From positions 1 to 62,025 of the forward strand of contig RFQR01000008.1 in assembly GCA_009924895.1 (NCBI GenBank): 62,025 bases of DNA. Reading direction: 5' to 3'. Source of the stretch: a bacterium. Lineage in GTDB: Bacteria; Patescibacteriota; Minisyncoccia; Phycocordibacterales; UBA2100. Positions 13,800 to 14,636 of this stretch are shown here, piece by piece. The position numbers were made by a program, and so were the translations under genes. The first letter of the stretch is position 1. Every line of letters starts with the position of its first letter. The notes below the pieces were generated by a model, which was not told the origin of the DNA, did not search any database, and was given only the letters and a program-made list of their open reading frames with translations.

Positions 13800-14636
13800 T
13801 TAAAGGACAATTTGTAAACCAGTAATAGCAGGTTGCGGCTGATATTGATCAGCAAGATTTTTTGCAATCGTTTCAACAAGCTTTTTGTCCTTCTTCTCCG
13901 CTTTATCGTAACTATATTTTGGGAGACTCAGGCGGATGGGTTTGTGTGTGTTTTTACGCTTAAGCATTTCTTTTACTGCGTCGTACTGATTGTCGTAAAT
14001 GTGAGCATTTGAAATCGAGTGCGAGTAGACACCAGGTTTTACATTAAGCTTTTGCGCGAGGATGGTCATAAGGAGCGCAAAGCCTGCAACATCTGACGGG
14101 AAGCCAAGAACCATATCGTTTGAACGAACAATATTGTGCATATTGAGTCGTCCGCCAATTATGTTTACGGTAAATGAGTACGGGCACGGTACATTTTTAC
14201 GGACAGTTCCTCCTAAACCATCTGCACTCGGGTCCCAGGTAATCACCACGCCATGACGTGACGTTGGATCTGCCTTCAAATGCTTTACGAGCTGCCCGAG
14301 CTGGTCACGTCCGAAATGCTTTCTCCACCGGTAGCCATAGGCGACGGTGACCGTATCTGCGGGGTTTGTGAATGCATCCCAAATTTTCGTGTAATCGCGC
14401 AAAAAATCTGCAGGCTTTCGCGCGCCTGAAATAAACCATACCTGCTCAGCCACGAACATTCGTACCGGAATTTTGCGCAGCGTAAGGAGCGGAAAGCCGT
14501 CTTTCTCGACATCATGTGAAAAATGCATCCCGGGAACTGCTGCAACTTCGTGCTTGGTGCGATTATTTATTTCGCGCACGCCATCTTTGACAATGCGACG
14601 CAACAGGTCTTGGTAGAGTGCATCGAACTTGGTCAT
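13800..14636 (-). CDS. thyA: Thymidylate-synthase-fold enzyme, Asp177 variant
   Basis: FPLLTLRK, EQVWFISG, IWD, YGYRWR, DQL, VPC, RSNDMVLGFPSD, AHIY; substrate may not be dUMP. Confidence 0.85.
   Translation of the reverse strand: MTKFDALYQDLLRRIVKDGVREINNRTKHEVAAVPGMHFSHDVEKDGFPLLTLRKIPVRMFVAEQVWFISGARKPADFLRDYTKIWDAFTNPADTVTVAYGYRWRKHFGRDQLGQLVKHLKADPTSRHGVVITWDPSADGLGGTVRKNVPCPYSFTVNIIGGRLNMHNIVRSNDMVLGFPSDVAGFALLMTILAQKLNVKPGVYSHSISNAHIYDNQYDAVKEMLKRKNTHKPIRLSLPKYSYDKAEKKDKKLVETIAKNLADQYQPQPAITGLQIVL

Follow-up and report, generated by a model that had tools for sequence, protein, structure and literature searches.

Cellular de novo synthesis of thymidylate is taught as having two solutions, ThyA and ThyX, both of which act on deoxyuridine monophosphate (dUMP). 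We deal here with a gene of the ThyA fold at positions 13800-14636 of a 62,025-nucleotide stretch of DNA (contig RFQR01000008.1 of assembly GCA_009924895.1, hereafter the window), which comes from an uncultured freshwater bacterium of the Patescibacteriota placed by GTDB in UBA2100. Its product, P0001, is predicted to methylate deoxycytidine monophosphate (dCMP) instead of dUMP. A dCMP methyltransferase of phage Xp12 was reportedly described by Feng, Tu and Kuo in 1978. Xp12 is the classic phage with 5-methylcytosine (5mC) instead of cytosine in its DNA (PMC8670742; bioRxiv 10.1101/2024.12.05.627091). The ThyA homolog of this phage was the positive control in experiments where 5-methyldeoxycytidine (5mdC) was made in Escherichia coli with the T4 gp1 kinase, and five of seven other homologs carrying Asp at the place of E. 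coli Asn177 (Asp177; E. coli numbering is kept below unless P0001 is specified) gave 5mdC as well (bioRxiv 10.1101/2024.12.05.627091). For the Xp12 system it was also proposed that thymidine nucleotides arise from deaminated 5-methyl-dC nucleotides, with no enzyme acting on dUMP, and both the dCMP methylases of the thymidylate synthase (TS) family and this linked deamination were thus already described, for phages (bioRxiv 10.1101/2024.12.05.627091).

As to the residues involved, exchange of Asn177 for Asp turns ThyA toward dCMP, and positions 177 and 147 best discriminate phage contigs with modified cytosine from unmodified ones (PMC8670742). Residue 143 is bulky and hydrophobic where the products are methylated and acidic where they are hydroxymethylated, 5-hydroxy-dCMP synthases are marked by D169N, and Asp177 also occurs in these synthases and in MilA (PMC13326640). 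In the dCMP hydroxymethylase of phage T4 (gp42), which has no C-terminal tail, Asp145 activates water and the D145N mutant is deficient, while D179N lowers kcat about 3600-fold; dihydrofolate reductase (DHFR) is required only after the reductive reaction of the TS type (PMC6400193), and is therefore not needed by gp42, which yields tetrahydrofolate (THF).

Against this background, the gene of the window probably encodes a dCMP C5-methylase working in a thymidylate route of swapped order, as part of a conserved chromosomal cassette of Parcubacteria/Paceibacteria. We give this reading, which is built on sequence comparison, a probability of about 0.6. The gene and the codons on which the argument turns are the following.

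13800..14636, minus strand: ThyA-fold enzyme P0001, 278 amino acids (aa), predicted dCMP C5-methyltransferase using 5,10-methylene-THF
14091..14093, minus strand: GAT, Asp182, at E. coli Asn177, the pyrimidine specificity position (alignments)
14181..14186, minus strand: TGC CCG, catalytic Cys151 (E. coli C146; 14184-14186) followed by Pro152 (E. coli H147; 14181-14183)
14193..14195, minus strand: AAT, Asn148, three residues before the Cys; Leu143 in E. coli and Asp145 in the T4 dCMP hydroxymethylase (alignments)
14253..14255, minus strand: CAT, His128, at E. coli Arg127, the second phosphate-binding Arg of the partner subunit (alignment)

P0001 matches Pfam PF00303 (Thymidylat_synt) with 183.7 bits and an E-value of 4.9e-54, residues 8-253 falling on positions 3-251 of the 266 of the profile, and it scores 121.4 bits on NCBIfam TIGR03284 (cut-off 108.35) and 222.7 bits on PHROG 160. 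In HMMER alignments with solved thymidylate synthases, the stretch 'rsndmvlgfpsdva' aligns without gaps on 'rsadiflgvpfnia', 'vpcpysf' falls on 'ppch..f' and 'tsrhgvv' on 'qsrrliv'. Against E. coli ThyA (reference taken from NC_000913), MAFFT pairs R21, E58, W80, W83, Y94, R126, R127, C146, H147, R166, S167, D169, N177, H207 and Y209 with R, E, W, F, Y, R, H, C, P, R, S, D, D, H and Y of P0001, respectively. The family residues R21, E58, Y94, R126, C146, R166, S167, D169 (Asp174, GAT at 14115-14117), H207 and Y209 are therefore all kept, whereas three hallmarks of a canonical ThyA are exchanged, Asn177 for Asp182, His147 for Pro152 and Leu143 for Asn148. Among the best matches stands the chain of a mutant thymidylate synthase, PDB 1njc, which shows Asp at the column of residue 177 and which we take to be the N229D mutant of Lactobacillus casei. 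Arg179 of the L. casei enzyme tolerates substitution. The start codon ATG at 14636 agrees with the 278-aa length of most orthologs, and a longer open reading frame (ORF) starting with TTG at 14711 does not.

The initial annotation, made from the letters of the DNA, had pointed to the Asp codon at 14091-14093 in a gapless alignment, to the retained Cys at 14184-14186 with Pro in place of His147 and to SRH in place of SRR; the HMMER and MAFFT alignments and the codon positions bear out each of these readings, the last one with S126-R127-H128 encoded at 14253-14261 in the translation of the ORF 13800-14636. Its statement that the T4 dCMP hydroxymethylase has Asp at the same position agrees with the gp42 column of our alignment, and the switch of the N177D mutant to dCMP with the N177D/N229D literature as cited in PMC8670742. 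It further expected a chromosomal gene that would be named thyA automatically, and in fact the sources call the orthologs 'thymidylate synthase' and the TIGR03284 score lies above the cut-off.

Asp182 is more than a product of chance or of a sequencing error. Contigs of four runs from four studies hold an identical stretch; three of these runs may be the source of the DNA itself, and the fourth, X4, spans 13802-14099 including the Asp codon with 0 differences (its cover is absent in the bins 14111-14282 and 15573-15722). Moreover, the Asp177 trait belongs to a family and not to a stray mutant. A word-index protein search gave 2488 relatives among 2997 candidates, of which the best 119 besides the query were used; they are 72-83% identical, and those with a name come from Parcubacteria, Paceibacterota or Kaiserbacteria under the label 'thymidylate synthase'. 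When one genome per species was scanned, 231 stretches encoding such a protein came up, and the best 80 of them (65-82% identity), on which all locus counts below are based, are of Parcubacteria type without exception (Kaiser-, Adler-, Taylor-, Nomura-, Colwell-, Vogelbacteria and others), including the closed chromosome CP066682.1. In the 200 ortholog rows made up of 120 proteins and these 80 loci, two sets that share organisms, Asp169, Asp177 and the Asn three residues before the Cys occur in 200 of 200 and the Pro after the catalytic Cys in 197, W80 and F83 are invariant, and a C-terminal tail I-x-G-x-Q-I-V-L is conserved, with I-K-A-P-V-A-I as its E. coli counterpart. The position of Arg127 is occupied by His or Gln in the Parcubacteria clade and by Arg in Xp12.

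The nearest characterised relatives of this family are phage genes. A tblastn search of 50,697 phage records placed Xanthomonas phage Xp12 and its relatives on top at 33-37% identity, among them Mallos, PaMx74, ZQG1, AXL_1 and RcSimone-Hastad. The residues at positions 143/146/147/169/177 read N-C-P-D-D in P0001, Xp12, PaMx74, ZQG1, RcSimone-Hastad and Axy16, L-C-H-D-N in E. coli ThyA and D-C-T-D-D in T4 gp42, and the motif of the Xp12 homolog is K-N-V-P-C-P ... G-L-P-Y-D. A HMMER search against representatives of clusters at 50% identity returned 13582 matches at E <=0.001, the best 150 of which were aligned with P0001, E. coli ThyA, T4 gp42 and Xp12. Column 177 of these 154 rows contains 125 Asp, 21 Asn and 8 gaps, and the most frequent pair at positions 147 and 177 is Pro/Asp (97 of 154 rows).

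A tree with the phage homologs, proposed by the initial annotation as a check, puts P0001 in one Asp177 clade with the Xp12 homolog. With FastTree on 165 rows, the 126 Asp177 rows form a single clade (support 99), and the tree as a whole needs a minimum of two changes of the Asp/Asn label. IQ-TREE (LG+C20 with posterior mean site frequencies, PMSF, quick search) was run on 67 of the 165 rows, the long branches of T4 gp42 and of the homolog L109 being omitted, and recovers the Asp177 clade with 44 of the 67 rows and a Shimodaira-Hasegawa-like approximate likelihood-ratio (SH-aLRT) support of 99. Inside it, a Parcubacteria subclade of 9 rows (99) and the Xp12 group of 22 rows (99) are separate branches. 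The clade does not include the canonical ThyA proteins found in sister genomes.

Sister genera hold a third type of ThyA, L109 (G016:C10) and L110 (G049:C8), with S-P-C-H ... G-F-P-N-D, that is, His147 together with Asp177; its long branch emerges at the base of the Asp177 clade, L110 has X residues from ambiguous bases, and a PF00383-like deaminase adjoins it. Four fusion proteins of the family were also seen (P0139, P0191, P0146 and P0249). P0139 joins a PF00383 dCMP deaminase to an Asp177 ThyA domain and P0191 a pyrophosphatase of the PRA-PH type (MazG-like fold) to ThyA, while the further fusions are of an HNH endonuclease with ThyA and of a guanylate kinase with a ThyA reaching 356 bits against the Pfam model.

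How the gene is distributed among close relatives gives a second line of evidence. The sample comprised 61 genomes of the GTDB family of the window, which are kin and not independent of each other, hence counts are given without a test. Sixteen have the Asp type (66-100% identity), 32 only a ThyA homolog of 23-37% identity, 8 only ThyX and 5 none of them. Eighteen of the 32 homologs were fetched, and 16 proved to be canonical N177/H147 proteins (P-P-C-H ... V-P-F-N) and 2 of the third type with His147/Asp177. The alternation runs through a single genus, split between 10 genomes with the Asp type and 15 with another ThyA homolog, and Asp-type and canonical cassettes occupy the same neighbourhood, with serine hydroxymethyltransferase (SHMT) and DHFR genes nearby in most loci. 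The Asp type coexists with ThyX only in the window's own genome, and with a canonical ThyA in one incomplete genome (G034, 78% complete). This alternation with ThyA or ThyX among kin implies that the cassette as a whole must yield thymidylate.

Two partners follow the Asp type closely. The deaminase encoded next to it in the window is present in all but one of the Asp-type genomes (15 of 16), the exception having a contig end there, and in one of the 45 others, where it adjoins a ThyA of the third type; orthologs of the Dcd-like neighbour with at least 56% identity occur in the 16 Asp-type genomes and in no other of the 61. Five relatives were searched at the level of whole genomes, including the closed chromosome CP066682.1 (G001), two of them being also members of the family sample (G001 and G004 equal G058 and G056 by matching coordinates). 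Each has no ThyX and exactly one PF00303 gene. In four of the five (G001-G004), thymidine kinase was not found, in three of these four the Dcd-like gene is the sole gene of dUTPase fold, and three have a single PF00383 gene. It thus seems that these organisms draw their thymidylate from the cassette as a whole. The status of sole ThyA-family gene in related genomes, together with the fixed deaminase and the fixed Dcd-like neighbour devoid of the catalytic Glu, is what the initial annotation overlooked, and such a lock suggests that the enzyme probably serves thymidylate synthesis itself and not some side activity.

The genes around the ThyA-fold gene in the window are as follows.

11143..11655, minus strand: dihydrofolate reductase (PF00186, 153.8 bits)
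11658-12008, minus strand: FolB
13165..13797, minus strand: Dcd-like (dUTPase-fold) protein, 210 aa, with Pro138 at 13384-13386, predicted dCTP/dUTP pyrophosphatase
14637..14700: divergent intergenic region of 64 bp between the ThyA-fold gene and the deaminase gene
14701..15168, plus strand: zinc deaminase of dCMP/cytidine deaminase fold, 155 aa, predicted to turn 5-methyl-dC nucleotide into dT nucleotide
15387..15722, plus strand: MazG-family nucleotide pyrophosphohydrolase, 111 aa (PF03819, E 1.9e-10)
15724..16452, plus strand: thymidylate (dTMP) kinase (Tmk; PF02223, 73.7 bits; NF005923, 108.1 bits, below cut-off)
16504..17769, plus strand: serine hydroxymethyltransferase, which regenerates methylene-THF (PF00464, 480.2 bits)

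A tblastn survey of the 80 loci recovered the deaminase in 79, the Dcd-like gene in 78, SHMT in 64, DHFR in 62, Tmk in 36 and MazG in 28, some of the misses being at contig ends. As a rule, the ThyA-fold gene stands between the divergent deaminase and the Dcd-like gene, and most loci with a DHFR gene have it downstream of the latter. The modules of phages are made up of a MazG-like pyrophosphatase, the ThyA homolog, a dCMP deaminase and DHFR, and in PaMx74, ZQG1 and RcSimone-Hastad the MazG-like gene precedes the ThyA homolog.

The Dcd-like protein scores 123.8 bits on Pfam PF22769 and 114.3 on the dCTP deaminase model TIGR02274 of NCBIfam (cut-off 92.8). Its Pro138, in the stretch G-I-I-D-A-S-Y-E-G-P-L-T-L-P-I, aligns on the Glu of the T-L-E motif in Dcd chains of Mycobacterium tuberculosis and on the mutated position of the E. 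coli structure 1xs4, which we take to be the E138A mutant. That Glu is presumably the deaminating residue, E138 of E. coli Dcd, a residue reportedly dealt with by Johansson et al. in 2005. Pro replaces it in all 74 readable orthologs, five further loci being cut by contig ends. Among sister genomes with a canonical ThyA, seven adjacent proteins of the Dcd family were read, six of which keep the Glu (T-L-E or T-M-E) while one is a plain dUTPase. We infer that this protein would be a pyrophosphatase on dCTP and/or dUTP and not a deaminase. Dcd-like dUTPases exist in archaea.

The divergent deaminase matches Pfam PF00383 (E 2.3e-9) and also MafB19-deam. Its H92, E94, C118 and C121 (H-x-E and C-x-x-C) and three more Cys are invariant in 33 orthologs, and the AF2 model has a mean confidence (pLDDT) of 92.8. 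Comparison of its sequence with the PDB gave no match, and the top Foldseek matches, at a template-modelling (TM) score of about 0.5, include the dCMP deaminases 4p9e, 1vq2, 2w4l and 7fh4, with enzymes of cyanophage S-TIM5, T4, human and PBCV-1 interspersed with TadA. A profile comparison with hhalign also links the family to the deaminase domain of P0139 (probability 92.8%). Altogether the enzyme looks active, and its predicted substrate comes from context. The window's assembly holds a second PF00383 deaminase match, G000:C2:57781-58050 on the plus strand, with one in-frame TAG.

Residues, clade, synteny and phyletic pattern are what we observe, and from these every catalytic step of the following route is derived. 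The Dcd-like protein without the deaminating Glu would hydrolyse dCTP and/or dUTP to the monophosphate. The ThyA-fold enzyme would then methylate dCMP, not dUMP, at C5 with 5,10-methylene-THF as carbon donor and reductant, giving 5-methyl-dCMP and dihydrofolate; these products are predicted because Asp177 and Asn143 as in Xp12, Asp169, the tail and the linked DHFR occur together. The zinc deaminase would convert the 5-methyl-dC nucleotide to a dT nucleotide, the folate would be recycled by DHFR and SHMT, and dTMP kinase and a MazG pyrophosphatase, often in the cassette, would complete the set. The order would thus be swapped, from dCTP to dCMP, 5-methyl-dCMP and dTMP, in a cassette that replaces the canonical ThyA or ThyX. 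Three arguments make us favour this route: the fixed Asp177/Pro147/Asn143 signature is common to a homolog that makes 5mdC, the characterised members of the clade act on cytosine nucleotides according to the papers cited above, and in sister genomes the canonical ThyA is accompanied by a Dcd that retains the Glu but not by this deaminase. Likewise, the conclusion of the initial annotation that the gene encodes a dCMP methylase is supported by sequence, phylogeny and comparative genomics.

Several points weigh against the swapped route. The activity of P0001 is a prediction, and its identity to the Xp12 homolog is only about 35-37%. The neighbours fit a classical dCMP-deaminase route equally well, which leaves the active-site signature and the clade as the basis of the case, and the sequence of the Dcd-like protein does not tell dCTP from dUTP as its substrate. 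The fold matches of the deaminase mix dCMP deaminases with TadA, and its comparison with the Xp12 deaminase revealed no significant similarity (BLASTP E 6.6; hhalign probability 8%). In the phage work, two of the seven Asp177 homologs gave no 5mdC, and the characterised phage deaminase needed the triphosphate, 5mdCTP (bioRxiv 10.1101/2024.12.05.627091). Lastly, the window's assembly (G000) also holds a ThyX (contig C99), a thymidine kinase (C25) and a second dUTPase (C63). This assembly has 1.59 Mb in 117 contigs, while congeners have 0.7-1.1 Mb and one 1.5 Mb, and the ThyX lies on a contig of 1.9 kb. Contigs of at least 8 kb are bimodal in GC content, with 0.95 Mb near 48-49% (the window has 48.9%) and 0.42 Mb near 43-44%; the contigs of ThyX, thymidine kinase and second dUTPase have 42.6, 44.5 and 43.6%, respectively, and none of the 106 8-kb windows of the higher-GC class is below 44.5%. 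The tetranucleotide distance of the ThyX contig is within the null, 15% of the null chunks being as far. The bin may hold part of a second organism, despite a reported contamination of 1.31%.

The alternative that survives best is an ordinary synthase, making dTMP from dUMP and tolerating Asp177, for which the deaminase would provide dUMP and the Dcd-like protein act as dUTPase, with DHFR, SHMT and Tmk completing the classical route. We consider it unlikely, though it has to be taken seriously. Every enzyme of the textbook route is in the cluster, the gene is the only one of the ThyA family in five of five relatives searched, all of them without ThyX, and it alternates with ThyA or ThyX among kin; at the level of the proteins, R21, E58, W80, Y94, R126, C146, R166, S167, D169, H207 and Y209 of ThyA are kept, and three of four relatives have no dUTPase-fold gene besides the Dcd-like one. 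Such an enzyme is harder to reconcile with the fixation of Asp177, Pro147 and Asn143 across the clade, in agreement with the homolog that makes 5mdC, and with the mutants, given that N177D/N229D moves the preference to dCMP and D179N of the T4 enzyme has a kcat about 3600-fold lower (PMC8670742, PMC6400193). Furthermore, Asp177 marks one clade whose characterised members in the papers cited are all enzymes of cytosine nucleotides, and sister genomes have a canonical ThyA in the same neighbourhood without this deaminase.

It is improbable that the module feeds mainly 5-methyl-dCTP to DNA as in Xp12, with 5mC replacing part or all of the cytosine as the DNA is replicated and thymidylate as a by-product. 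The gene set equals that of the 5mC phages (pyrophosphatase, Asp177 ThyA homolog, deaminase and DHFR) and a kinase adjoins the module, either Tmk (36 of 80 loci) or, in two relatives, a dNK-family gene. The latter, with 29-31 bits, lies directly beside the module deaminase at G001:C1:401120-401701 and G003:C1:205197-205676, a place close to which the window has its Tmk gene, and could be a kinase for a modified or thymidine nucleotide. In addition, the characterised phage deaminase acts on 5mdCTP and would call for such a pool (bioRxiv 10.1101/2024.12.05.627091). On the other hand, close relatives, some of them congeneric, have a plain ThyA or ThyX instead, which is better explained by a housekeeping role, and nothing points to an exclusion of dCTP. 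A bolder version combines this idea with the swapped route: in many Parcubacteria/Paceibacteria without a dUMP-dependent synthase, a 5-methyl-dC pool phosphorylated before or during deamination would lead to 5mC incorporated at replication into chromosomal DNA independently of motifs, as in Xp12. We regard it as quite improbable, and if true it would be the first cell with a phage-style base substitution before replication.

Very improbable is another C5 product, 5-hydroxymethyl or 5-hydroxy, or a CMP substrate as for MilA, in a pathway of DNA modification or of small molecules. Asp177 is indeed common to T4 gp42, MilA and the 5-hydroxy-dCMP synthases (PMC13326640). Nevertheless, position 143 is Asn and not Asp or Glu, position 169 is Asp and not Asn, the conserved tail and the linked DHFR fit a hydride transfer, and the residues in contact with the deoxyribose in ThyA, H207 and Y209, are kept. 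An ORF at 12759-13052 (plus strand), whose match to the nucleoside 2-deoxyribosyltransferase family PF05014 has a score of 28.8, exactly the gathering score, resembles in this the pairing of MilA with MilB, and the family presumably includes nucleotide N-glycosidases such as MilB. This ORF is present in just 4 of the 80 loci, and a MilA/MilB-like pairing was discarded on this ground. Finally, a prophage or recently transferred phage gene without a housekeeping role is scarcely conceivable, even if the nearest characterised relatives are phage genes and PHROG 160 matches with 222.7 bits, since the neighbours are housekeeping genes (DHFR, FolB, SAICAR synthase, SHMT and an ABC transporter), synteny extends over 80 species of several Parcubacteria lineages and the orthologs form one well-supported subclade.

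Other observations concern the surroundings of the cassette. Between the FolB gene and the ORF of PF05014, a gene like folate gamma-glutamate ligases at 12018-12725 (minus strand; TIGR04132, 163.5 bits, below cut-off; Pfam F420_ligase) has one in-frame TGA after codon 66, which leaves ORFs of the same frame at 12525-12725 and 12018-12476; it could be a pseudogene, a sequencing error or a case of read-through. The ORF at 9631-11127 (plus strand, 498 aa) gave no Pfam match at E 0.001. In the spacer between deaminase and MazG, a 39-nt stretch at 15312-15351 is a short dispersed repeat, of which another contig in the same three runs carries two copies some 650 nt from each other, one exact and one with 4 differences.

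As far as the literature is concerned, the search, for which subscription journals were mostly out of reach, found no published cellular housekeeping route to thymidylate through a dCMP methylase nor a Glu-less Dcd-like partner, and its matches on the cellular route were confined to phages, MilA and unrelated work. A study of Patescibacteria mentions a transferred thyA, in the part available to us without an analysis of residues (PMC12455944). If the swapped route is true, it would be a third cellular route to thymidylate, with cytosine methylated first and deaminated after, an order so far proposed only for 5mC phages, and hundreds of annotations as 'thymidylate synthase' and 'dCTP deaminase' in genomes of candidate phyla would be wrong, with consequences for metabolic reconstructions of reduced symbionts. 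It would also raise the question of 5-methyl-dC nucleotide pools in these cells, or of 5mC in their DNA. One locus would offer a natural swap of cassettes, Dcd with Glu plus ThyA with Asn versus deaminase plus ThyA with Asp plus Dcd-like protein with Pro. Moreover, a dCMP methylase and possibly a deaminase selective for 5mC are the kinds of enzymes now used in methylation sequencing.

When compared with known systems, P0001 resembles canonical ThyA (E. coli b2827; EC 2.1.1.45) in its fold, the catalytic Cys, E58, Y94, D169, H207/Y209, the tail and the partnership with DHFR and SHMT, and it keeps three of the four phosphate arginines (R21, R126 and R166). It differs from it by Asp for Asn177, Pro for His147, Asn for Leu143, Phe for Trp83 and His for Arg127, and by its place outside the Asn177 clades. 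With T4 gp42 it has in common the ThyA fold, Asp at position 177 and the catalytic Cys, and its predicted cytosine-nucleotide substrate is that of gp42, but it shows Asn148 where gp42 has Asp, Pro at 147, a conserved tail and a linked DHFR. The D169N mark of 5-hydroxy-dCMP synthases of the RB69 gp48 type is likewise absent, the residue being Asp174 in P0001 and Asp in 200 of 200 rows. As for its partner, the Dcd-like protein shares with Dcd and with bifunctional Dcd-dUTPases the models PF22769 and TIGR02274, the Ser/Arg motif and the Asp of the 'ID' motif, while its G-I-I-D-A-S-Y-E-G resembles the Tyr-bearing motif of dUTPases.

The closest likeness is to Xp12. Its homolog (QNN97214.1) has the same ThyA fold, N143, C146, P147, D169 and D177, the motif K-N-V-P-C-P and a place in the Asp177 clade, and a PF00383-type deaminase and DHFR are encoded close to the gene in both cases; Asp177, a non-acidic residue 143, Asp169, the position in the clade and neighbours of deaminase, DHFR and pyrophosphatase type are all found in the Parcubacteria. 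The two nevertheless differ in several respects. Identity is only 37% over 90% of the query, Xp12 is a phage while the P0001 gene is chromosomal, cellular and conserved across many Parcubacteria, and the Parcubacteria deaminase is divergently transcribed and has no detectable relation to that of Xp12 beyond the fold. The fixed pyrophosphatase partner is the Glu-less Dcd-like protein in the Parcubacteria and a MazG-like protein in the phages related to Xp12.

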